A DNA stretch of 64,000 bases from Candidatus Magasanikiibacteriota bacterium (GTDB lineage: Bacteria > Patescibacteriota > Patescibacteriia > Magasanikbacterales > GWA2-37-8), in contig JBAYGI010000004.1 of assembly GCA_041666745.1 (NCBI GenBank), forward strand, positions 3,440-67,439, read 5' to 3'. How positions within the stretch are numbered: the first letter of the stretch is position 1; the number at the start of each line of letters is the position of its first letter. The notes beneath the pieces were generated by a model. It did no database searches, was not told the origin of the DNA, and worked only from the letters and a program-made list of their open reading frames with translations. Shown here piece by piece: positions 6,409 through 42,807 of the stretch. A program made the position numbers and the translations under genes.

Positions 6409-6423
6409 AGTGATTGTGACATT

Positions 6424-6438
6424 ATTGTTGACAACAAT
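6424..6438. promoter_or_regulatory. perfect 15-bp palindrome ATTGTTGACAACAAT immediately upstream of the trmB-like start (candidate operator)
   Basis: Read directly from the sequence, 16 nt upstream of the start codon at 6408 (minus strand). A related half-site ATTGTTGTTCAC lies at about 6504. Confidence 0.3.
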
Positions 6439-6566
6439 TTATAGTGTAATGTTAGCCGTAATAACAATATTATCATACCACTTGTTAACATATTTGTCAA
6501 ATATTGTTGTTCACGATATTATGTGTGTACTGCACAATCATGTGTAGATCAATCAGGGAGGGTGTC

Positions 6567-7154
6567 ATGTTGGCACTCATTCGACACAGCGCCTATTATG
6601 TTGGCGCACAGCAGGCCCAAGTTGGGTGTTCGGACGAAGCATACGCATCGGCACGATATGCGTACGACATGTTCACCCAGCCACTGACCGTAAACGGCGT
6701 CAAGCTGGCCATTCAGTGGGGAGTCGGAAGGACGTATTCCGCCGTGTATGCCTCGCCGGCAATTCGCGCAATTCAGACGGCTGCGGCGGCCGTGGGCGTG
6801 GAGGAAACGAGCGTAATCGTAGATCCGCACTTGTTCTACACTCCGGGTTGTGGTGCGCGTGAGAAGGCGATGAAAGCCCTCTTCATGCGTCAGGGGTACA
6901 ACCCCCCGAGCGCATGGTACTTGGATCAAAATCAGGATGACGTACGGGAGTTCATGGCGGCAGTGGACGATCTCACCATGCTCGTCATCCAGTTGTCTGT
7001 GCGCGACGAGCAGATCCTAGCTGTCTCACATTCTGTCTTTTTGGGGGCTGTTTGTGCGAAACTGACGAACGCCCCAAAAGACTGTCTCAACAAGACGTTC
7101 GGTGTTTGTGAGGGGTTCCTTGCAGATAACGGCGTCTTCAAGGGCTATGTCTAG
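6567..7154 (+). CDS. histidine phosphatase (PGAM-like) family protein encoded in a high-GC island
   Basis: ATG at 6567 preceded by GGGAGGG SD. N-terminal LIRHSAYY (RH catalytic motif) and C-terminal AVSHSVF (SH motif), spaced as in the histidine phosphatase superfamily. About 55-60% GC versus the AT-rich host. The motifs are degenerate, so this is a tentative call. Confidence 0.4.
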   Translation: MLALIRHSAYYVGAQQAQVGCSDEAYASARYAYDMFTQPLTVNGVKLAIQWGVGRTYSAVYASPAIRAIQTAAAAVGVEETSVIVDPHLFYTPGCGAREKAMKALFMRQGYNPPSAWYLDQNQDDVREFMAAVDDLTMLVIQLSVRDEQILAVSHSVFLGAVCAKLTNAPKDCLNKTFGVCEGFLADNGVFKGYV

Positions 7155-15881: not shown

Positions 15882-16352
15882 ATGAGACCAAAAAAATGGA
15901 CAGAGCAACAGCTTAGAGAAATTGTTCCAACAGTTACTAGTGTGCGTCAAGTTTTAAGAGAACTTGGGCTTAAAGAAGCTGGTGGAAATTATGCGCAGAT
16001 AAAAAAATTTTTAAAAGAATATAAAATAGATATCTTGCATTTTACTGGTGTTGGTTGGAATATAGGAATGAAAATGCAGATTAACACAGCTAAACCGTTA
16101 AAAGAAATACTGATTAAAAATAGTAGTTATCAAAGTTTTAAGTTAAAAAAAAGATTGTTTGCAGAGAAAATAAAAAAACCATATTGTGAATTGTGTGGAT
16201 GGGCAAAGTTGTCGATAGACGGTCGAGTACCTTTAGAGTTAGATCATATAAATGGTGATCACTCAGATAATAGGATTGACAATTTACGAATTTTATGTCC
16301 TAATTGTCACAGTTTACAGTTAACTCATAGAGGTAGAAACAGAAAAAAATAA
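15882..16352 (+). CDS. free-standing HNH endonuclease
   Basis: C-terminal ELDHINGDHSDNRIDNLRILCPNCHS is a canonical HNH motif with zinc-finger Cys/His. The stop codon lies 5 nt before tRNA-Leu. Confidence 0.8.
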   Translation: MRPKKWTEQQLREIVPTVTSVRQVLRELGLKEAGGNYAQIKKFLKEYKIDILHFTGVGWNIGMKMQINTAKPLKEILIKNSSYQSFKLKKRLFAEKIKKPYCELCGWAKLSIDGRVPLELDHINGDHSDNRIDNLRILCPNCHSLQLTHRGRNRKK

Positions 16353-16357
16353 AATAT

Positions 16358-16437
16358 GCTCAGGTGGCGGAATGGTCTACGCAAGAGACTTAAAATCTCT
16401 CGCCGCAAGGCTTGCGGGTTCGAGTCCCGCCCTGAGC
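16358..16437 (+). tRNA. tRNA-Leu (anticodon TAA), class II with long variable arm
   Basis: Acceptor GCTCAGG/CCTGAGC, anticodon stem AGAGA/TCTCT, loop CTTAAAA, long variable arm CGCCGCAAGGCTTGCGGG, T-loop GTTCGAGTC. CCA is not encoded. Confidence 0.85.
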
Positions 16438-16440
16438 ACT

Positions 16441-16473
16441 AAAAATACTACTTTTATGAAGTAGTATTTTTAT
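16441..16473 (+). terminator. intrinsic terminator after tRNA-Leu
   Basis: Perfect palindrome AAAAATACTACTT ttatg AAGTAGTATTTTT. Confidence 0.6.
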
Positions 16474-27890: not shown

Positions 27891-28541
27891 ATGCTCAAAG
27901 TTTTATACGAAGACAATCACCTCGTCGCGGTTTTTAAACCAGCGGGTGTTTTGGTACAGGGCGATGAAACCGGTGACAAATGTTTGATGGATGAGGTGAA
28001 AGAATATTTAAAAGAAAAATACAATAAGCCCGGGCAGGTATTTTTGGGATTGTTACACCGTTTGGATCGGCCGGTGAGTGGAGTGGTGTTGTTTGCCAAA
28101 ACCAGTAAAGGAGCTTCACGATTGTCTGAACAAATTCGCACTCATAAAGTACAAAAAGTTTATCAGGCATTGGTGGAGGGGAAAGTAAAAAAAGAAAGGG
28201 GTACTTTGATAAATTGGTTGAAAAAAGATGAACAAAAAAATAAAGTGACTGTTTTTGATAAAGAAACTAAAGATACGCTTTATGCTGAATTGGATTATAA
28301 GGTTTTAAAATCCAACAGCCAAAATTCATTGTTGGAAATAAATTTAAAAACCGGTCGGCCACATCAGATTCGTTCACAGTTGGCACACATCGGACATCCG
28401 ATAGTGGGGGATCTGAAATATGGAGCAAAAAATGCTTTGCCGGATAAATCTATTGCGTTGTGTGCGGTTTCTTTTACTTTTGAAACGGCGACTGGTGGTG
28501 AAATAAAAACAGCGACCGTGGAGACGCCATTTTTCTTGTAG
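27891..28541 (+). CDS. RluA-family RNA pseudouridine synthase
   Basis: HRLDRPVSGVVLFAKT with catalytic Asp, and KVYQALVEG motif II. Confidence 0.85.
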   Translation: MLKVLYEDNHLVAVFKPAGVLVQGDETGDKCLMDEVKEYLKEKYNKPGQVFLGLLHRLDRPVSGVVLFAKTSKGASRLSEQIRTHKVQKVYQALVEGKVKKERGTLINWLKKDEQKNKVTVFDKETKDTLYAELDYKVLKSNSQNSLLEINLKTGRPHQIRSQLAHIGHPIVGDLKYGAKNALPDKSIALCAVSFTFETATGGEIKTATVETPFFL

Positions 28542-28547
28542 TTTTAC

Positions 28548-28642
28548 GCTCGGTCGCCTATTGCTTTTCGCTTTTTTCGACCGCGAGGTCGAAAGGATGA
28601 GCCTCGGGCTCATAACCCGCTCAAAACAATAGGTGACCGAGC
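28548..28642. repeat. structured palindromic intergenic element, copy 1 (outer 16-bp stem, inner stem TCGACC-gcga-GGTCGA, conserved core with hairpin ATGAGCC-tcg-GGCTCAT)
   Basis: Read directly from the sequence. Followed by a T-run. A 62-nt core is shared with 42641-42733 in inverted orientation. Confidence 0.85.
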
Positions 28643-29337
28643 TATATTTTTTCAAAAAGGGGTTTGTAGATGTCGTCTTTGATGTCTATTTTTAGTTCAT
28701 TGCGATTGACGGTATTGATAAATTCTATAGGGGCATCAGAAATTATTGCCAGCGGTTGTTTTTCTGTGCCTTCGCCCATTACCAATACAGCGGTGGTGGC
28801 TAGGCTGTCGGCGATGTCTGTTTTGGAAACTTTAAATTTTCTGTCAAATAAATCCGGTTTTCCGATGTAATTTTTTATCCCTTTGAACCCGGCATATCCC
28901 ATAGATATGCCCACTACGCCGGCGCGCAAAGGCATGAGGCGACTGTCGGTGATTATTACCCCGAGTTTTTTTAGTTTATATTTTTTGAGTAGATAATCGC
29001 GCACTATTTCGGCGCTTTGGTAGCAATCTTTTGGTAGTAGTATCAATTTTCCATTGGCGTTGGACTCATCGATGCCGGCACTGGACAACACGTCGCCGTC
29101 TTTGATGGTCAGCCAAGCATATTTTGTTTTAATAGCAAAATCACTTTCTTGTCGGATGATTTTTTCTTTATATTTTTCATCTTTCGCCACACAAAACCTA
29201 CCTTCGGATAGGGCGACAATTTTTGAAGTTATTACCACCACGTCCTTATTTTTTATTTGAGGTAAATGTTTGTCCAAAAAAGAAAATAGGTCGCCGTTTT
29301 CTTTGAATAAAGAAGTTTTGATTGGTTGGACTTTCAT
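28642..29337 (-). CDS. CofE-like protein (F420-0:gamma-glutamyl ligase family fold)
   Basis: VVVITSKIVALSEGR and SSAGIDESN match CofE family motifs. 231 aa. Confidence 0.6.
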   Translation of the reverse strand: MKVQPIKTSLFKENGDLFSFLDKHLPQIKNKDVVVITSKIVALSEGRFCVAKDEKYKEKIIRQESDFAIKTKYAWLTIKDGDVLSSAGIDESNANGKLILLPKDCYQSAEIVRDYLLKKYKLKKLGVIITDSRLMPLRAGVVGISMGYAGFKGIKNYIGKPDLFDRKFKVSKTDIADSLATTAVLVMGEGTEKQPLAIISDAPIEFINTVNRNELKIDIKDDIYKPLFEKI

Positions 29338-31262: not shown

Positions 31263-31337
31263 TGGTGCCCTCGGCAGGAGTCGAACCCACATTCCCAGGT
31301 TCGAAGCCTGGTGTCCTATCCGTTGAACGACGAGGGC
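31263..31337 (-). tRNA. tRNA-Arg (anticodon TCG), CCA encoded
   Basis: Minus-strand GCCCTCG...CGAGGGC A CCA. Anticodon stem CCAGG/CCTGG, loop CTTCGAA, T-loop TTCGACT. Confidence 0.7.
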
Positions 31338-31354
31338 AAATTGTGTTTTGTTTG

Positions 31355-31427
31355 TGGGCCGGCCGGGGATCGAACCCGGGACCTTATCCTTAAGAGGGAT
31401 CTGCTCTACCAGCTGAGCTACCGGCCC
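31355..31427 (-). tRNA. tRNA-Lys (anticodon CTT)
   Basis: Minus-strand GGGCCGG TA GCTC AGCTGGTA GAGC ... loop CTCTTAA ... T-arm CCGGG TTCGATC CCCGG, acceptor CCGGCCC A. One G-A mismatch at the base of the anticodon stem. Confidence 0.65.
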
Positions 31428-31441
31428 GTGAAGGTGATCGG

Positions 31442-32212
31442 TTATTGAATCGGATCACCCGGTTGTCGTTTTAGTATTTCCATTTTTGGTCCTTTCCAGC
31501 CTTTGATTTTCAAAGCGGCCTCGGCGGCTTCGGTTTGAGCTTCTTGTTTGCTACTACCATTACCACTGGCGATTAATTCTTTTTCTAAGAATATTCCCAC
31601 TTTAAAAATTTTATCATGATCCGGTCCTTCTTCTTCCAACACGCGATAAGTCGGAGTGATCCCCAAAATCTCTTGAGAAGATTCTTGGAAGCGACTCTTG
31701 GCATCCATATACAAACCATTTTCCAGTACAAAAGGTAATTTGGAAATTACCCAACGCAAGATGAATTTTTTACAGGCTTCATAACCTTGATCCAGATAAA
31801 TCGCACCCACCAATGATTCAAACACATTGGCCATGATATATTCACGAGCCTTGGTGCCGGAGTCTTTGGTTTCGCCATGGCTCAAGAACAAAAACGGTTC
31901 AACACCGATTTCATACGCCACACTAGCGAGCATTTTGGCGTTGACCAAAGCCGCGCGCCAATTGGTCAATTCACCCTCTGGATTGCCATATTCATTGAAA
32001 AGGTATTCAGTAACAACTAATTCTACCACAGCGTCCCCCAAAAATTCAAGACGTTCGTTTTGACCCAATGGAAATTCGTGGTGTTCGTTTAAATATGATC
32101 GATGGACAAAAGCTTGAACCAAAAAATCAATGTTTTTAAATTTGATGTCGATTTTTGTTTCCAATAACGGAAAGTCCTTTTCTTGGACTTCCGGTAAGTC
32201 GGTTGATTTCAT
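31442..32212 (-). CDS. rnc: ribonuclease III
   Basis: HRSY...NERLEFLGDAVV signature plus a C-terminal dsRBD. Confidence 0.9.
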   Translation of the reverse strand: MKSTDLPEVQEKDFPLLETKIDIKFKNIDFLVQAFVHRSYLNEHHEFPLGQNERLEFLGDAVVELVVTEYLFNEYGNPEGELTNWRAALVNAKMLASVAYEIGVEPFLFLSHGETKDSGTKAREYIMANVFESLVGAIYLDQGYEACKKFILRWVISKLPFVLENGLYMDAKSRFQESSQEILGITPTYRVLEEEGPDHDKIFKVGIFLEKELIASGNGSSKQEAQTEAAEAALKIKGWKGPKMEILKRQPGDPIQ

Positions 32213-32220
32213 ATTTGTAT

Positions 32221-32670
32221 TTATTTTTTTTCTGCGATTAATGATTCGCCGTTTGGGTACATGTCTTTGTAGAGTGAGCCCAACACGCCGTTTACAAATT
32301 TTCCCGAAGCCGGTCCGCCATAACTTTTGGCCAATTCAATCGCTTCGTTGATAGCGACTTTGGGAGGAACTTCCGGGTTGAATTTCATTTCCCATATTCC
32401 AATACGCAAAATATTGCGATCCATGACGGTGATTTTTTCTAATGGCCAATTGGGAGCATATTTTACAATGATTTCATCGATTTCTTTCAAATGGTCAATG
32501 ATGCCATTGATGATATCACTGGAAAATTGCTTTTCATCACCTAAACCCACTCCAAACTCTTTGATATTTTGATCCAAAATAGCTGGCAGACCAGCACTGG
32601 GCTGTCCACGAAAATCCCATTCAAAGATGGTTTGCATAGCGATTGAGCGAGCGAGATGACGATTGGACAT
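32221..32670 (-). CDS. nusB: transcription antitermination factor NusB
   Basis: [17 protein letters not shown] start and all-helical ~149 aa, consistent with NusB. Confidence 0.8.
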
Positions 32671-33065: not shown

Positions 33066-34037
33066 ATGAAACAAATACGTCAAATTGAAGAAAAAACTAT
33101 TTGGGATCGGTTGGTTTTGGCTGGTTTTGCGCCGTTTGCTCAATCTTGGGATTGGGGAGCTGTTTTGGTTGCTGAAGGAAAAGAAGTGGAAAGGTTGGTG
33201 GTGGAAAACGATGGAGAGGTAGTATTTGGAGCACAAGTGGTTTATCTGCCCCTGATTTTTGGTTGGCGTTATGCTTTTTGTCCAAAAGGACCGGTCGGGG
33301 ATCTGAACGCAGAAAATTTTAGACTGTTGAATGAATATTTTAAGAAAAATAAAATAGTTTTTTGGCGCTTTGAGCCGGCAGAAAAAATCGAGTTGCCAAA
33401 TTTAATTAAAACCGTAGATATAAATCCGCGGGCCACTTTAATTTTGGATTTGCAAAAAAGTGAAGAAGAAATTTTGGAAAAAATGCATACCAAAACAAGA
33501 TATAATATTCGTCTAGCTCAAAAGAAAAATTTGGAAATAAAAAATGAAAAGAATTTAAAAATATTTTTGGAATTAATGAAAAAAACCGGCAGTCGCGATA
33601 ATTTTCGTTTGCATGAGACCAAACACTATGAAGCGATTTTAAATTCAGATTTTTGTAAACAAATTACTATATACTACGAACAAAAACCTTTGGCCACAGC
33701 AATGTTTGTGGGATGTGGTGAAACGTTTACTTATTTATTTGGCGCGTCTGATCACGGATATCGTCAGCTGATGGCGCCATATCTATTGCAGTGGGAGGGA
33801 ATAAAACTCGGGAAGAAAAACAATTATAAATTTTATGATTTTTTTGGTGTGGCACCAAAAATAAACGAAGAAGGCGAGTATGAATTTGATTACAAACATC
33901 AGTATGCCGGAGTAAGTCGATTCAAACACGGTTTCGGTGGAGTATATTATGAAGCACCAGGAACTTTTGATTTAAAAATCAACAAAACCAAATATAATAT
34001 TTATTTTTGGCTTCGCAAATTGCGTAGGATGGTTTAA
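33066..34037 (+). CDS. FemAB-family peptidoglycan interpeptide-bridge peptidyltransferase
   Basis: TRYNIRLAQKK motif and overall FemAB/MurM-like length and pattern. Confidence 0.65.
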   Translation: MKQIRQIEEKTIWDRLVLAGFAPFAQSWDWGAVLVAEGKEVERLVVENDGEVVFGAQVVYLPLIFGWRYAFCPKGPVGDLNAENFRLLNEYFKKNKIVFWRFEPAEKIELPNLIKTVDINPRATLILDLQKSEEEILEKMHTKTRYNIRLAQKKNLEIKNEKNLKIFLELMKKTGSRDNFRLHETKHYEAILNSDFCKQITIYYEQKPLATAMFVGCGETFTYLFGASDHGYRQLMAPYLLQWEGIKLGKKNNYKFYDFFGVAPKINEEGEYEFDYKHQYAGVSRFKHGFGGVYYEAPGTFDLKINKTKYNIYFWLRKLRRMV

Positions 34038-37000
34038 AGCATCGTCACGCTATTTACTTTGTCTCCCGGTTCTTTGAATCTCATCAGTCGTACTCCCTGA
34101 GTAGCGCGACCGGAGGAAGAAATAGATTTGAATGGTAAACGAATTACTTGTCCGTGAGTAGACATCAATAGTAAATCTTTTTCGTTGGCATCAACGGTAT
34201 CCACTACTTTGGCGAAAGTAAGATTGCCGGTTTTAGTGGTAATTTCGGCGGTTTTTATACCACTACCACCACGACCCTGTACTTTGTATTCTTTCAAAAC
34301 CGTGCGTTTGCCAACCCCATTTTCACCAACTGTCAAAAATACCAGCGAAGTATTTTTTGGGTCCACTATATCCATACCGATTACTTCGTCAGAACCTTTG
34401 AGGCGCATACCACGTACACCACCAGCTGTGCGTCCCATTTCACGAACGTCTTTTTCACGGAAGCGGATAGCCTGACCTTGTTTGGTGGCGATCATGATTT
34501 CGTTGTTTCCATTGCTTGGTTTGACCCATTCGAGATTGTCGTCCGGTTTTAATTTTAGAGCAACCAAACCATTGCGTCGAACATTGGCAAAATCTTCCAG
34601 AGCGGTCTTTTTGATATTTCCGCGAGTGGTTACCATTACCAAATATTTGATATTGGTCAAATCACCGGTGCCAAGTAGGGCGGTAATTTTTTCATTTGGA
34701 GCCATTTGCAAGAAGTTGACCAAGGCCTGACCTTTGGCGGTGCGACTGGCTTGTGGAATATCATAAGCCATCAATTGGAATACGCGTCCGCGATTGGTGA
34801 AGAATAAAATATTGTCGTGTGTATTGGTAGCCATCAGATGAGCGACACTTTCTTCTTCTTTGGTAGTAACTCCTATTACACCTTTGCCACCACGTGATTG
34901 TTGGTGGAAAGTATCCGGTGGCAAGCGTTTGATGTAGCCATCGGTAGTGATCATGATCACCGTTGGTTCGTTTGGAATCAAATCTTCGGTAGTAAATTCT
35001 TTTACACCGTGCGCGATGATTTTGGTACGACGTTCTTCGCCGTATTTTTCTTGTATTTCTTCAGTTTCAGTTTTTACGATGCCCAATATTTTTTTCTGAG
35101 AAGATAAAATACTTTCCAAATCTTTGATAATCAATCTTTTTTCTTTTAATTCATCTTCAATTTTTTGTCTTTCCAAATTGGCCAATTGTTGTAGTTTCAT
35201 TTCCAAAATAGCAGTCGCTTGTCGATCACTAAATTTGAATTTGGCGATTAAATTTATTTTGGCTTCGTCTTTGTCGTTACTGGCGCGAATCAATTTGATA
35301 ATCAAATCGATTTTATCCAAGGCGATTTTTAAACCTTCCAAAATATGTTCACGATCCTTGGCTTTTTCGAGATCAAATTCGGTGCGACGACGAATTACTA
35401 CTTGACGATGTTTGATGAACTCTTCCAAAATATTTTTTAGATTCAAAACACGTGGTTGGATACCATCTACCAAAGCTAGCAGGTTGTAGTGGAAAGTTGT
35501 TTGTAGCTCGGTTTGTTTGAAAAGTTGATTTAAAACTTTTTGTGGGTAAGAATCTTTTTTGAGTTCGATAACTATACGCACGCCGTCTTTGTTGGACTCA
35601 TCGCGTAAGTCGCGGATGCCTTCCATTTTTTTATCTTGTACCAAGTTGGCGATTTTTTCAATCATCTCGGCTTTGTTTACTTGGTAGGGCACTTCCGTAA
35701 CAATAATTTGGAACATGCCACTTTTTTTGGCTTCCTGAATTTCGGCTTTGGCGCGAATGACCACACCCCCACGTCCGGTAGCACAGGCCGTCAAAATATC
35801 TTTTTTATTATAAATAATACCACCGGTTGGGAAGTCCGGGCCTTTGATAATTTCGGCCAATTCTTCCACAGTAGTTTGAGGTTCTTCGATCAGTTTGATA
35901 ATACCACCGCAAAGTTCAGAAAGATTGTGCGGAGGAATAGAAGTCGCCATACCAACGGCGATACCCATCGTGCCGTTTAGAAGTAGGTTTGGTAGTTTGG
36001 CCGGTAATACCATCGGTTCATTGTGTGAGCCGTCGTAGGTGGCATTGAAATTGACAGTATTTTTTTCAATATCAAAAAGCATTTCCTCGGCAATCGCGCG
36101 TAAACGGGCCTCGGTATAGCGCATAGCAGCCGCAGAATCCCCATCCATTGAGTTATGGACAAATACACCGGAGGCAAGCGCAAAATTGTGAGTATTATCT
36201 ATTGTCAAATCAAACACATCCTCGCGTGTATTTATTTTTTCCACACTTTTCACTTTGTGATTTTTGGTAATATCCTGCAAAACGCATTCTAAATTTTCAG
36301 TATAGTATTTTTTGAAACCTGTATCCCAAGTGGTGGATGCTCCATATGGATAAACTATTTTTCTCACCTGTTCATACAACTCTTGGTTTAATTTTTGGTA
36401 TCTGCCGAATGTTTCTTTGCAGATAGTTAAAAATTTCTTTTTTCCGGTATTGTTGGTCAAGCGTTTTTTGTTGGAGGCGGCGATTTTATCATGGAATAAT
36501 TGTTTGTATTCCGGCAACTTCCACAGTCGTGTCAGGGTTGTGGTAGCACGTTTACTTAGTTCAACTCTTTTTTCCGGGTGTGCTTGAATATGTTCTTTGT
36601 TTACTCTGCTCAAAGTTTGTTTCATCTTTTCTTTGTATTCCGGATTTTGCCAGTTGATCAAATTTCGTGATTTCATTCTTTCGGCAGTCTTCGCACGGTT
36701 TTCTGGTTTTGACCAAAATTCTTTACGGCCTTGTGCAATTTTTTGTCTGTAAGATTCGTCTTGATGTTTTAAGCTGACATTGTCAGAATGAATTTTCCAA
36801 TGTTCACCCCAGTGCATGCGGGTAATGTTCTCTGGATTGTTATTTGTTTTATCAAAATTGACATGGTGGCGTACTCGTCCATCAGCCTTTTGATATTTTT
36901 TATTGGTCAAGTTATAGTTATCTGCCAAATGATGTGCAGGGATCCACTCTTTTGTTTTATTTTGTAATATTAATGAATAACCTTGACGATTTAACCGATC

Positions 37001-37678
37001 AGTAGTTTCGGAAATTTTTTCATAAATAGGCATCAACGATGTTTCGGCTTGTAAATATTGCGCTTCCTTATAACTACCATCACGTAACATAAACAAATGA
37101 TTTGGTGTGCATCTTATTTCTTCGTCGTTGTCCAAAGTTATTTTTACGAGCTCAGCATTTTGTCTTGTCAATCTAGGGTGTTTAATTTCAGCAATAGAAA
37201 TCAAACCGGCACTATTAACAGTGTAGGTATAATTTTTTTTGCCCTGCTCAAATTCTTTTATTAAATCACCGAAACTCAAAGAACGACCGTCCGTCAGTTT
37301 TACTTTAGTGTCTATGGTAAAACAGCCGAAATTTCCCTGGCCATCCACCAACTGATGACGCATGGAAAACTCCTGTGCCATACGCACCATTGCCTCATAT
37401 ATGGAAGAGTCACCGTGCGGATGGTATTTGGCCATCACCTCACCGACTACGTGGGCGGATTTGCGGAATTTACCGGTATGTCGCAGACCAATATTCCACA
37501 TGGCGTAAAGAATACGACGATGCACCGGTTTGAGTCCGTCGCGAACATCTGGCAGAGCGCGTGAAATGATCACACTCATGGCATATTCCAAGTATGAATT
37601 TTTCATTTCACTGACGATAGAAGTCTGAGTGATTTTTCCGATGTCTCCTCCTTTTGGTAGTTCAAGTTTGTTTTGCAT
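34034..37678 (-). CDS. gyrA: DNA gyrase subunit A, interrupted by an in-frame intein
   Basis: LPDVRDGLKPVHRRILYAM, HPHGDSSIYEAMVRMAQEFSMRHQLVDGQGNFG [intein] SMDGDSAAAMRYTEARL, and a C-terminal beta-pinwheel. 1214 aa raw, 823 aa without the intein. Confidence 0.95.
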   Translation of the reverse strand: MQNKLELPKGGDIGKITQTSIVSEMKNSYLEYAMSVIISRALPDVRDGLKPVHRRILYAMWNIGLRHTGKFRKSAHVVGEVMAKYHPHGDSSIYEAMVRMAQEFSMRHQLVDGQGNFGCFTIDTKVKLTDGRSLSFGDLIKEFEQGKKNYTYTVNSAGLISIAEIKHPRLTRQNAELVKITLDNDEEIRCTPNHLFMLRDGSYKEAQYLQAETSLMPIYEKISETTDRLNRQGYSLILQNKTKEWIPAHHLADNYNLTNKKYQKADGRVRHHVNFDKTNNNPENITRMHWGEHWKIHSDNVSLKHQDESYRQKIAQGRKEFWSKPENRAKTAERMKSRNLINWQNPEYKEKMKQTLSRVNKEHIQAHPEKRVELSKRATTTLTRLWKLPEYKQLFHDKIAASNKKRLTNNTGKKKFLTICKETFGRYQKLNQELYEQVRKIVYPYGASTTWDTGFKKYYTENLECVLQDITKNHKVKSVEKINTREDVFDLTIDNTHNFALASGVFVHNSMDGDSAAAMRYTEARLRAIAEEMLFDIEKNTVNFNATYDGSHNEPMVLPAKLPNLLLNGTMGIAVGMATSIPPHNLSELCGGIIKLIEEPQTTVEELAEIIKGPDFPTGGIIYNKKDILTACATGRGGVVIRAKAEIQEAKKSGMFQIIVTEVPYQVNKAEMIEKIANLVQDKKMEGIRDLRDESNKDGVRIVIELKKDSYPQKVLNQLFKQTELQTTFHYNLLALVDGIQPRVLNLKNILEEFIKHRQVVIRRRTEFDLEKAKDREHILEGLKIALDKIDLIIKLIRASNDKDEAKINLIAKFKFSDRQATAILEMKLQQLANLERQKIEDELKEKRLIIKDLESILSSQKKILGIVKTETEEIQEKYGEERRTKIIAHGVKEFTTEDLIPNEPTVIMITTDGYIKRLPPDTFHQQSRGGKGVIGVTTKEEESVAHLMATNTHDNILFFTNRGRVFQLMAYDIPQASRTAKGQALVNFLQMAPNEKITALLGTGDLTNIKYLVMVTTRGNIKKTALEDFANVRRNGLVALKLKPDDNLEWVKPSNGNNEIMIATKQGQAIRFREKDVREMGRTAGGVRGMRLKGSDEVIGMDIVDPKNTSLVFLTVGENGVGKRTVLKEYKVQGRGGSGIKTAEITTKTGNLTFAKVVDTVDANEKDLLLMSTHGQVIRLPFKSISSSGRATQGVRLMRFKEPGDKVNSVTML
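36152..37324 (-). mobile_element. 391-aa intein with HNH-type homing endonuclease and NUMOD-like repeats, inserted between GQGNFG and SMDGD of GyrA
   Basis: Begins with Cys (CFTIDTKVKL, block A), has a TPNH block B, and ends with ...TIDNTHNFALASGVFVHN followed by Ser (+1). Internal HHVNFDKTNNNPENITRMHWGEHWKIH (HNH motif) and repeated N..W..PEYK modules. Confidence 0.85.
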
Positions 37679-40241: not shown

Positions 40242-40733
40242 ATGCAACAAATAGATAATATAATAAAAAATACACAGATTGCGATTTTTAAAGGTAAGGA
40301 AATTAGGAAAACTTTGTTTCAAGGCGAGTGGTGGTTTTCGGTAACTGATGTAGTAGAAGCGCTTACGGACAGTTCAAACCCAAATGATTATTGGTATCGT
40401 ATGAAAGTTCGTGTAAAAAGTGAGGATAAAATTGAGTTATCAACAATTTGTCGACAACTGAAATTAGAATCTTCTGATGGCAAAAAGTATGAAACTGACT
40501 GTGCCAACACAGAAGGAATTTTTCGTATCATCCAATCAATCCCATCCCCCAAAGCCGAGCCATTCAAACGTTGGTTGGCAAAGGTGGGTTACGAACGAGT
40601 GCAAGAAATAGAAAATCCGGAGCTCGCCACCAAGCGAACACGAATGTTGTATAAAATGAAAGGATATAAGGAATTACTCGGGGCACCTCAAAAACTCATC
40701 ACTACGGTGGTGATTTTTTGTTTAGTGCCTTGA
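40242..40733 (+). CDS. Bro-N domain protein (phage antirepressor-like N-terminal domain)
   Basis: EIRKTLFQGEWWFSVTDVVEALTDSSNP matches the Bro-N consensus (F..iR....ge.WF.a.Dva.aLg). Confidence 0.5.
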   Translation: MQQIDNIIKNTQIAIFKGKEIRKTLFQGEWWFSVTDVVEALTDSSNPNDYWYRMKVRVKSEDKIELSTICRQLKLESSDGKKYETDCANTEGIFRIIQSIPSPKAEPFKRWLAKVGYERVQEIENPELATKRTRMLYKMKGYKELLGAPQKLITTVVIFCLVP

Positions 40734-40784: not shown

Positions 40785-42629
40785 ATGAAAAACTTTTTGA
40801 AAAATTTTATAGCTGTGTTTTTGGTGCTGTTGGTGGTGGCGGGTGTGTTGGGGTTAACTCGATCCAATGCAAGCCAAAAACCGGACAAAGTAGATATCGG
40901 CTGGTTGATTCAAGAAATCAATGCCGGTCAGGTGAAAAAAGTTTCCGTGAGTGGAGATACTATTGATGTAGAATTGAAAGATGCTACCGCCAAACATCAA
41001 GAAGTAAAAAAAGAAACAGGTGAATCGTTTGGTGATATTATGAAAAACTACGGCGTGTCGGATACCGCCCGCAATAGTATCGCGGTGGAAATTAAAGACG
41101 AAAGTGGTTGGAAATTTTGGTTGGTGAATCTTTTGCCGGTGATTATCCCATTGGTTATTATTATGGCATTTTTATATTTCATGACTAGAGGGGTACAAGG
41201 TGCCAACAACAAAGCGATGGGATTTGGTCAGAGTAATCCTCGCCAAGTAGGGGCAGATAATAAAGATAAAAAAACTTTTGCGGATGTTGCGGGTGCAAAA
41301 GAAGCCAAAGAAGAGCTGGAAGAAATCGTAGATTTTTTGAAAGACCCAAAAAAGTTTGCCGACATGGGTGCCAAAATTCCCAAAGGTGTATTGTTGATGG
41401 GTGCTCCGGGTACTGGTAAAACTTTGTTGGCCAAAGCAGTTGCGGGTGAAGCGGGGGTGCAATTTTTTCACATGAGCGGTTCAGAATTTGTGGAAATGTT
41501 TGTGGGTGTTGGTGCCAGTCGTGTGCGTGATTTGTTTGCCAAAGCAAAAAAAGCCGCTCCGGCGATTGTGTTTATTGATGAAATCGATGCGGTTGGACGA
41601 CGTCGTGGTACCGGTATGGGTGGTGGTCATGATGAACGCGAACAAACTTTGAATCAAATTTTGGTGGAGATGGATGGTTTTGAAGCCAATTTGGGAGTAA
41701 TCGTAATGGCGGCCACCAATCGCCCGGATGTTTTGGATCCAGCTTTGTTGCGCCCAGGTCGTTTTGATCGTCGTGTGGTTATCGATTTACCGGACATCAA
41801 AGATCGTGAAGAAATTTTGACAGTTCATGCCAAAGGCAAACCGATAGATAGTACTGTTTCTCTAAACAAGTTGGCTCAACGCACCCCCGGATTTTCCGGA
41901 GCGGATTTAGCCAATCTGTTGAATGAAGCGGCTATTTTGACTGTGCGTCGTGGTAAAAAAATTATTGGAGAGAGTGAAGTTTTGGAAAGTATTGAAAAAG
42001 TATTACTTGGCCCGGAAAGAAAAAATCGAATTATCAGTACACAAGAAAAGAAAATGACTGCTTATCATGAAGCGGGGCATGCGGTGGTAGGGCATTTTTT
42101 GTCGCACTGTGATCCAATTCGCAAGGTGTCAGTAATTTCTCGAGGACAAGCCGGTGGTTATACTTTGCATATGCCAACCGAAGACAAACACTATCGCACA
42201 CTTGCTCAGTTTCGAGATGATTTGGCTATGATGTTTGGTGGTTATGCAGTGGAAAAATTAATTTTTGGTGATGATATGTTGTCGACCGGTCCAAGCTCGG
42301 ATTTGCGCAACGCTACCAAAACCGCCAAAGATATGGTGACTCGTTATGGTATGAGTGAAAAACTCGGCCCACGTACTTTTGGAGAGCATGAGGAAATGAT
42401 TTTCTTAGGCAAAGAAATCCACGAACAGCGCGATTATAGCGATAAAACCGCTGAAGAAATAGACAAAGAAATTAAAGTATTGGTGGAAAATGCTGAAAAA
42501 CGCGCCAACACAATCGTGGTGGCCAATCGTGAAAAAATGGATTTGTTGGTGCAAGAGCTGATGGAAAAAGAAACAATCGAACAAGAAGACATCCTGAGAA
42601 TTTTAGGACCACGCCCTACCGTAGAATAA
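40785..42629 (+). CDS. ftsH: ATP-dependent zinc metalloprotease FtsH
   Basis: N-terminal TM helices, Walker [19 protein letters not shown] zinc motif. Confidence 0.96.
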
Positions 42630-42640
42630 TATTAAAAAAT

Positions 42641-42733
42641 ACCGGCTACAATTACCTTTGAGCGGGTTATGAGCCCGAGGCTCATCCTTTTGCCCTCGCG
42701 GGCAAAAAAAGCGAAAAGGTTGTTGTAGCCGGT
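42641..42733. repeat. structured palindromic intergenic element, copy 2 (inverted relative to copy 1; inner stem TTGCCC-gcga-GGGCAA)
   Basis: Read directly from the sequence. Flanked by an A-run and a T-run. Lies 3' of ftsH. Confidence 0.85.
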
Positions 42734-42807
42734 ATTTTTTGTTTTTCAGAAATGTGCTATAATATATTTAGTCAGGCAAGTTTAATTGCCAATTGTTATT
42801 TGTATCT

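Follow-up and report, generated by a model that had tools for sequence, protein, structure and literature searches.

Two hairpins in the intergenic DNA of a Candidatus Magasanikiibacteriota bacterium are the subject of this article. They lie in a stretch of 64,000 nucleotides (contig JBAYGI010000004.1 of GenBank assembly GCA_041666745.1, positions 3,440 to 67,439 of the forward strand), which we call the window throughout, and each carries a conserved, structured core at the end of a long outer stem. A sequence-only reading of the window had placed them at 28548-28642, with the core on the + strand, and at 42641-42733, with the core on the - strand, beside an rluA-like gene and ftsH respectively, and direct reading of the DNA bears out both the hairpins and their neighbours. 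The same is true of the observation that the 62-nt cores differ at exactly four positions, which amount to two compensatory pairs in the first core hairpin, H1 (C-G to U-A and A-U to C-G). Copy 1 sits between convergent genes, whereas copy 2 separates ftsH from the + strand gene that comes next, its core being antisense to the pair; the features are given here in order, arrows within a motif marking a boundary.

27891-28541 (+): rluA-like pseudouridine synthase gene (PseudoU_synth_2) upstream of copy 1, its stop codon 6 nt before the hairpin
28547 (+): flanking C of copy 1, which with the T at 28643 forms the C↓G...C↓T boundary
28548-28642 (+): copy 1, whole hairpin (outer stem plus core); minimum free energy -53.4 kcal/mol, z = -7.3; 93.8 bits with covariance model R1, E = 3.7e-27
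28548-28563 (+): copy 1, 5' arm of the outer stem, GCTCGGTCGCCTATTG, pairing with 28627-28642 in 16 bp, one of them G.U
28564-28626 (+): copy 1, conserved core, with a CUUU/AAA(A) helix, a UC x UC internal loop, a 2-bp GC clamp, H1, H2 and AACCC
28573-28596 (+): copy 1, hairpin H1, a 10-bp stem with two basal U.G pairs and a GCGA loop at 28583-28586
28597-28613 (+): copy 1, hairpin H2 (AUGAGCC-UCG-GGCUCAU), whose six modelled pairs are all compensated in the family
28614-28618 (+): copy 1, junction strand AACCC, matched in every copy and required by both scan patterns
28627-28642 (+): copy 1, 3' arm of the outer stem, its last base within the stop codon of the convergent CofE-like gene
28642-29337 (-): CofE-like gene (F420_ligase family), convergent at copy 1, with its stop codon at 28642-28644
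28647-28652 (+): copy 1, T-run, inside the 3' coding end of the - strand gene
40785-42629 (+): ftsH, upstream of copy 2
42634-42739 (-): copy 2, whole hairpin including the paired A-run and T-run, with the look of a bidirectional terminator and its core antisense to ftsH
42656-42718 (-): copy 2, conserved core
42669-42685 (-): copy 2, hairpin H2, with the same sequence as in copy 1
42686-42709 (-): copy 2, hairpin H1 (UUUUUUGCCC-GCGA-GGGCAAAAGG)

Folded on either strand, the complete hairpins reach -53 to -60 kcal/mol (z = -7.3 to -9.3 against shuffles), and the isolated 63-nt cores fold about equally well on both strands, whether RNA or DNA is modelled. One exact stretch of 33 nt is found twice in the window, where 100 shuffles give an expectation of 0, and the outer stems of the two copies are unrelated, that of copy 1 having 16 bp and that of copy 2 about 20 bp plus the paired A- and T-runs. 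Model R1 gives copy 2 a score of 94.6 bits over 42648-42724, and a covariance-model search of the 64-kb window with the filters off finds no third copy. Two copies in one 64-kb window are what a recent local duplication, or a chance resemblance, would lead one to expect, but at least about 100 distinct copies turn up in relatives, on other contigs and in other genomes, and the shuffles of the window leave nothing to chance. The local duplication is thereby refuted, and we give this whole account practically no credence.

The copies were collected in two scans. Species-representative genomes, searched with a strict pattern that left the 5' half unconstrained, gave 8 loci, and metagenome contigs, searched with both hairpins free and H2 unconstrained, gave at least 108; after the removal of duplicates and six chance matches there are at least 106 distinct copies, including the window's two, and all family counts given below for context, boundaries and orientation refer to copies among the matches listed (L-numbers denote the loci compared in this analysis). 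Model searches of the loci add about ten divergent copies, some of which, a subfamily, have an internal loop in H1. All copies are intergenic, so that we are dealing with a repeated, extragenic palindrome. Contigs of 38-190 kb carry two or three pattern-matching copies each, from which we estimate a density of about one copy per 15-50 kb, or tens per genome of about 1 Mb. At one locus, L049, two copies stand in tandem only 48 nt apart (6418-6493 and 6541-6617); the lower stem of one is exceptionally rich in GC, and in the other GCAA replaces the GCUC that follows the clamp. We also came across a mosaic, the copy at L059:574-649, whose 3' flank matches that of L024:504-579 exactly and whose 5' flank is that of another subfamily; it reflects recombination at the common core or else a chimera that the repeat produced in assembly.

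Every host that can be named among the matches listed belongs to Candidatus Magasanikbacteria, of the candidate phyla radiation (CPR/Patescibacteria). The window's own FtsH is 100% identical to an NCBI entry, which places the window in a Magasanikbacteria MAG (metagenome-assembled genome), and the FtsH, GroEL and EF-P proteins encoded beside copies of three subfamilies have their named relatives in the Magasanikbacteria or Patescibacteria group. Spread across phyla was considered and rejected. Four loci (L003 and L005-L007) come from a MAG, CAZXEV01, labelled 'uncultured Gammaproteobacteria', but L007 shares synteny with the window and encodes an FtsH 92.6% identical to the window's, and we therefore read the label as an error and the MAG as Magasanikbacteria. 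A second MAG with the same label, CAYZHG01, contributes L002 and L008; the comparison made for CAZXEV01 was not extended to it. Known families offer no home for the element: an Rfam 15 scan of the window at gathering thresholds passes only three tRNAs, and relaxing the threshold to E <= 10 gives nothing relevant for copy 1 or for an expanded variant described below. In addition, no true copy was found in IMG/VR (three pattern scans and a model search of 33 chance 15-mer matches), blastn gave no match in phage and plasmid collections, and a full-text search of the literature on structured RNAs, miniature inverted-repeat transposable elements (MITEs) and terminator-loop insertions in CPR, Patescibacteria or Magasanikbacteria turned up no description of it. 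This is a previously undescribed repeat family, specific to the Magasanikbacteria lineage as sampled.

Seen from the outside in, the architecture runs from a long, locus-specific outer stem (median about 25 bp, usually 17-30 bp) through an AT-rich lower stem characteristic of each subfamily and a UC x UC loop to a GC clamp and a three-way junction. It is this junction that makes up the conserved module of about 55 nt, with its 2-bp GC clamp, H1, H2 and near-invariant junction bases. Lower stems include AAUGAC paired with GUAAUU, with a conserved G.A, and UUAUC paired with GACAA, with a conserved A.C. H1 consists of five U-A or U.G pairs (U-rich/A-rich), a variable 5-bp top and a GCGA loop; H2, which abuts it directly, has 6-8 bp and a loop of UUCG, CUCG, CUUG or UCG; and the junction itself has strands of 0-1 and 5 unpaired bases, the longer one being AACCC. 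A conserved mini-open reading frame (AUG...UAA) in H2 was entertained and rejected, its frame not being kept among the variants. Likenesses to boxA/boxB (nut) sites and to the GGA motif bound by CsrA were noticed as well, and neither was retained.

The covariation suspected from just two copies is strong in an alignment of 103 sequences. There, H1 pairs in 99.6% of cases with double changes in five pairs, and H2 in 98.1% with double changes in all six, so that 11 of the 16 pairs in the two hairpins, and 21 of 28 in the whole structure, have changed on both sides. The covariation score is 0.361. Shuffles give 0.126, none of the 500 attaining the observed value, and sliding the partners along gives no more than 0.129, a manipulation that also lowers pairing from 91.5% to 41-55%. 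None of five measures was reached by any of 500 shuffles, and RNAalifold, run on the same alignment, independently gives the same fold. This is the covariation expected of a selected structure, although hairpins of DNA would yield the same signal. The invariance of the junction has to be read with some care, since both scan patterns fixed parts of it and it is to that extent a product of ascertainment; however, two copies at the ftsH site, L117 (76.8 bits) and L118 (92.7 bits), were reached through their flanking proteins and so without pattern bias, and they keep the junction. Three of the divergent copies carry an enlarged form of the module, a five-way junction, at

L054:1075-1240 (+), L068:55-215 (+) and L077:1215-1405 (-): expanded variant

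in which about 75 nt forming two extra helices, H3 and H4, are placed between H2 and AACCC. H3 includes GUGAUGA and has internal loops rich in GA, the short hairpin H4 varies in its loop (GAAA in L054), and the H3/H4 module was found only inside the element.

Whether the fold is one of RNA or of single-stranded DNA is a natural question, and some features exist on the core strand only, namely the GNRA loop, the UNCG or CUYG loop and two invariant U.G pairs at the base of H1, where a change of A to G retains the pair as U.G. These speak for a host-selected, cis-acting RNA module in 3' untranslated regions and intercistronic spacers, whose mobility would be incidental and whose junction might bind a protein or ligand or mark a processing site; RNase III might free a small RNA of about 60-90 nt by cutting the stem of about 25 bp, or the capped hairpin might shield the mRNA upstream of it from 3'-exonucleases. 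The expanded variant, whose extra helices resemble the peripheral domains of functional RNAs, points the same way. Against this, G.U is no commoner than A.C in the core's variable stems, where single mismatches are rare (about 2%) and number 6 and 9 respectively, or in the outer stems, where the two are about equal ('>>' versus '<<', Fisher p = 0.13), and this is unusual for selected RNA. The sequence-only reading had argued that the wobbles of the outer stems can pair only in + strand RNA; each window copy does have one extra + strand wobble pair, but family-wide the asymmetry disappears and, with G.U no commoner than A.C, the argument does not generalise. Selection of the outer stems in the host transcript by way of wobble asymmetry is accordingly not supported, and the same goes for the core stems. 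Stem mismatches run at 0.7% in antisense copies and 1.4% in sense copies. Taken as they stand, the data fit a folded RNA and a folded DNA single strand alike.

A more specialised version of the RNA idea is that we are looking at a new small self-cleaving ribozyme, or at an aptamer with the terminator stem as its P1. The element is indeed small, with about 20 near-invariant junction and loop bases, helices that covary with free sequence, and many copies in either orientation, and repeat-associated ribozymes show that signature of small size, near-invariant junction, free covarying helices and many copies. No known ribozyme or riboswitch model matches it even at E <= 10, however, and the junction has only 0-1 and 5 unpaired bases; a P1 of about 25 bp would form irrespective of ligand, and the copies are placed after genes rather than in the 5' leaders where riboswitches belong. 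We consider this improbable.

As regards their position relative to genes, the copies lie 20-50 nt after a stop codon, next to housekeeping genes (ftsH, groES/groEL, prfB/tsaC, epmA/efp, yebC/ruvC, rpoC and a tRNA), and their orientations divide into 34 sense co-directional, 26 convergent, 18 antisense co-directional and 4 nominally divergent. The preference for sense over antisense among co-directional copies (34 versus 18, or 32 versus 14 after distance filtering) is one more point in favour of the RNA module, albeit a modest bias, with p of about 0.04 by a normal approximation in which orthologous copies are uncorrected. It is offset by the quarter to third of operon-internal copies that are antisense and equally intact, and the neighbours (ftsH, groESL, prfB, efp, ruvC, a tRNA) have no common theme. 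Frequent inversion could reconcile function in place with the antisense copies. The genome does encode RNase III, another point for the RNA module, and the outer stems, at about 25 bp, would be of a length to serve as its substrates; the RNase III and NusB genes are in the window at 31445-32670 (-), adjoining two tRNA genes (31266-31427).

The same surroundings raise the more prosaic suggestion that these are ordinary intrinsic terminators with a shared stable cap, having neither mobility nor a function for the junction. Between convergent genes they certainly have the look of it, with an A-run, a stem and a T-run: a T-run of at least five follows 22 of 23 convergent copies, and 18 of the 23 have both runs. 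The sequence-only reading had described both window copies as followed by a T-run and embedded in terminator-like stems, and the T-run of copy 1 proves to lie inside the coding end of the convergent gene. In the family at large the terminator-like embedding is seen mainly between convergent genes, about half of the operon-internal copies being without a T-run, and 17 of 32 co-directional copies have neither run. Moreover, a mere cap needs no near-invariant junction bases.

Six orthologous sites could be compared in related genomes. After ftsH, four relatives (including L007) have the core in sense, the window and one other relative have it in antisense, and two more have plain terminators with no core, the stem of one of these, L119, resembling the window's outer stem; the window and L007 thus carry opposite orientations despite FtsH proteins that are 92.6% identical. 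At the site of copy 1, between the rluA-like and CofE-like genes, L043 has the element in the opposite orientation on an unrelated stem, and in L082 it is absent, the spacer there being 0 nt. Between yebC and ruvC it is missing from the window and from L043, where 15-20 nt of spacer contain no hairpin, while three relatives have it on an outer stem of 17-19 bp, two of these stems being related through compensatory changes. The groES-groEL spacer measures 113 nt with the element against 15-16 nt in two relatives, and L122, the closest groEL relative, retains both arms without the core; the epmA-efp spacer is about 140 nt with the element and 6-26 nt in three relatives. At each of these last two sites the element is present in one lineage. 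Finally, after a tRNA gene, the relative L025 keeps a plain terminator and has the whole hairpin just downstream of it.

Three observations made at these sites deserve recording in their own right. At the site orthologous to that of copy 1, L021:3025-3240 has a different, 185-nt AT-rich hairpin with the loop AACTCGCTTCGCTCAAAC. The loop looks as though the ends of the element (UCGC...GCUCAAA) had been kept and everything between them deleted, and this may be what a decayed copy has left behind. A relative that is more distant has, between yebC and ruvC (L055:10760-10940), a tandem duplication of a unit of about 76 nt that contains a hairpin and TTCGCTC, and this may be another repeat family at the same kind of site. 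In the window itself, an open reading frame with an HNH endonuclease domain (15882-16349, +) ends 9 nt before the tRNA gene at 16358-16438 (+), and a plain terminator comes after that gene at about 16441-16470.

Two further comparisons show how the element behaves. L002 and L104 represent the same locus, with flanks that match closely apart from a few variable stretches, and their cores are inverted relative to each other, the breakpoints lying inside the stem arms. In addition, whole hairpins with an identity of about 90%, measured from the A-run through the T-run, are found at loci with non-homologous flanking genes (L036, L039 and L077; L014 and L076). From presence and absence at five of the six orthologous sites it follows that what is gained is usually an entire hairpin; loss can affect just the core, which also flips in place. 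The idea that the core was as a general rule inserted into the loop of a pre-existing terminator, with the outer stem as what was left of that terminator, is therefore rejected, five of the empty sites having no hairpin or, in the case of the tRNA, keeping the terminator alongside; such an insertion is possible at the ftsH site. Mobility and occurrence in either orientation, both of which the sequence-only reading had put forward, are now backed by the six presence/absence sites, by inversion in place and by the same hairpin at non-orthologous loci. For plain capped terminators, the presence of plain terminators at the same sites in relatives might have seemed encouraging, but whole hairpins inserted into 15-nt operon spacers that are hairpin-free in relatives, and the same hairpin at unrelated loci, are a different matter. 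The data largely contradict this explanation, and we would assign it very little probability.

We think, then, that the element is probably a non-autonomous mobile hairpin of the general kind represented by repetitive extragenic palindromes (REPs), REPINs and MITEs, doubling as, or tolerated as, a terminator or intercistronic hairpin. The sequence-only reading had offered a choice between a MITE/REP-like mobile element and an undescribed terminator-associated motif, and the copies, the covariation and the mobility support it. On this model, whole hairpins would arrive in compact intergenic spacers, loss of the core would leave a plain hairpin or terminator, and the core would flip in place by exchange between the stem arms. 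A hairpin landing after a stop codon would serve, or be tolerated, as a terminator (bidirectional where the genes converge) or as an intercistronic hairpin, and it may terminate or stabilise transcripts. The junction would be the recognition site for an enzyme acting in trans on the folded single strand, for which we favour single-stranded DNA and a cut at C↓T of the sort made by HUH/Y1 nucleases, with RNA as the alternative.

As for the boundaries of the hairpin, on the core strand C directly precedes it in 40 of 99 copies and T directly follows it in 55, and the closing mismatch is C..T in 36 of 99, compared with 7 for its mirror image A..G and 3 for T..C; TC is found on both sides in 18 of 99, where about 0.2 would be expected. 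The core is bounded alike (..UC↓GC...GC↓UC..), and because the same boundary surrounds it, the nested unit and the whole unit both read C↓G...C↓T. In E. coli, the enzyme TnpA-REP cleaves single-stranded DNA at C↓T with a folded REP alongside (PMC3333891), and we cite it only as an analogy for the putative HUH/Y1-like cut. A bolder proposal, which we regard as rather unlikely, is that the junction is a new recognition or catalytic module, of single-stranded DNA or RNA, that would mobilise the whole hairpin by structure-guided cutting and joining at C↓G...C↓T with no recognisable Y1 transposase, or, as a variant, a ribozyme of the sense RNA that would cleave and ligate itself.

A good deal weighs against a mobile hairpin, and we set it out together. 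There is no general target-site duplication, something the sequence-only reading had proposed to look for: the longest direct repeats at the hairpin base follow the null distribution, the sole exception being a 10-nt repeat in L060. The outer stems are not shared among copies of one genome, and since these copies differ so, there is no sign of a recent burst. Few elements are degenerate, about ten weak model matches standing against about 100 intact elements, and orthologous copies (L021/L022/L082; L117 and L118) keep their junction bases while their stems change by compensation. This argues for selection in place, which dead selfish copies would not experience. The GNRA and UNCG or CUYG loops and the five-way variant are more reminiscent of a functional RNA than of the ends of a transposon, and what is conserved is the tip of the hairpin and not its ends, unlike in REP elements and MITEs. 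Nor has an enzyme come to light. No transposase, Y1/RAYT (REP-associated tyrosine transposase) or reverse-transcriptase gene was found near any copy, none is among the window's 54 open reading frames, and phmmer with E. coli RayT found no match in 0.91 Mb of Magasanikbacteria DNA, which includes no complete genome and for which a single-sequence query is weak. Two more candidates were tried and rejected: the gene between the paired copies of L081 is tsaC-like and no transposase, and a search for an autonomous version carrying an open reading frame between a 5' half and a distant 3' half found only the three expanded, non-coding variants.

Several of these points are, of course, strengths of the RNA module, which we keep as a serious rival because orthologous junctions are kept, decayed copies are scarce and the loops are RNA-like. 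The junction has indeed been kept across large divergence, in the prfB-tsaC spacer (L081 and L063) as well as at the ftsH site (L117 and L118). Close relatives that are without the element at the same sites, and have no substitute for it, are hard to square with a host function. On balance we judge a host-selected RNA module to be somewhat unlikely as the whole story, and it may coexist with the mobile hairpin that we prefer.

It is instructive to hold the element against systems already described. With intrinsic terminators it shares a stem with an A-run before it and a T-run after it, placed right after stop codons and mainly between convergent genes, but the place of a loop is taken by a structured, conserved module of about 60-85 nt, and a T-run is missing from many copies. 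Integron attC sites are likewise imperfect palindromes after genes, which are folded as a single strand and in which structure counts for more than sequence; they are conserved at the base of the stem (the R'' and R' boxes) and belong to cassette arrays beside an integrase gene, intI, whereas here the tip is conserved and the neighbours are housekeeping genes. Elhai et al. (2008) reportedly found small dispersed repeats in Nostoc that are single hairpins of 21-27 nt with compensatory changes, nested in other hairpins and repeats in a manner that preserves structure, yet these are short cyanobacterial hairpins, and ours, from the CPR, sets a three-way junction of about 55 nt on top of a long stem. 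Bacterial MITEs such as Correia, ERIC, RUP and bcr1 are long hairpins of about 100-150 bp that lie in intergenic DNA and can give rise to terminators or RNase III sites or change them, and the likeness of one non-autonomous long hairpin inserting in intergenic DNA to another is plain. MITEs, however, have conserved terminal inverted repeats and target-site duplications, whereas here the arms are locus-specific, with no general duplication, and even within subfamilies only the 5-10 bp nearest the core are shared, the outer arms being different.

Among elements that move as single strands, the IS200/IS605-derived palindrome-associated transposable elements (PATEs) also have two hairpins, comparable to H1 and H2, and no target-site duplication. 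Theirs are separate left and right subterminal hairpins, insertion takes place 3' of a fixed tetra- or pentanucleotide, and there is a gene for TnpA (Y1), whereas H1 abuts H2 and does not resemble it, the boundaries are enriched in nothing but C↓...↓T, and the RayT query brought up no TnpA in the 0.91 Mb. Another parallel is with REPs and the composites they form, bacterial interspersed mosaic elements (BIMEs) and REPINs, which RAYT (TnpA-REP) Y1 nucleases mobilise in Proteobacteria. These too are small extragenic palindromes, non-coding and present in many copies, that stand downstream of genes or where two genes converge. They are recognised in folded single-stranded form, with mismatches affecting recognition, they make no target-site duplication and they persist in one lineage, and the boundaries of our element recall the C↓T cleavage of E. 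coli TnpA-REP (PMC3333891). The differences are equally instructive. A REP conserves its hairpin and a 5' GTAG foot; the present element conserves its three-way-junction tip while foot and stem vary, has no GTAG, and shows enrichment only of the C before and the T after a foot and arms that are locus-specific. In addition, neither the window's 54 open reading frames nor the 0.91 Mb yielded a RAYT gene, which in REP-bearing genomes typically has REPs on either side, and copies within a genome are not near-identical.

The window has two other features that we mention in passing. A 163-aa open reading frame with a Bro-N domain (40242-40733, +) stands between rpsA (S1) and ftsH, and in L119-L121, where S1 is followed directly by ftsH, it is absent, so it looks like a lineage-specific insertion of a phage-associated type of gene. 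The gyrA gene at 34037-37678 (-), of 1214 aa, has an intein-splicing domain at residues 135-509.

CPR/Patescibacteria have tiny, dense genomes in which almost no non-coding elements have been described, and it is in this setting that the element is of particular interest. That it has a defined fold is very strongly supported, and its architecture reverses the logic of REPs and MITEs in that the tip is conserved and the ends are free. For those who work with these organisms in metagenomes, the covariance model can already be used to annotate the elements and to flag both assembly chimeras that arise at them and mislabelled MAGs. If the junction is the recognition site of an enzyme, or a ribozyme, it provides a concrete handle for finding that activity. 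If the hairpins terminate or stabilise transcripts, a mobile module would create, move and flip the boundaries of transcription units in a minimal genome; and if structure-guided mobility is true, CPR bacteria would acquire, move and invert ready-made terminators, which might then fairly be called 'mobile terminators'.

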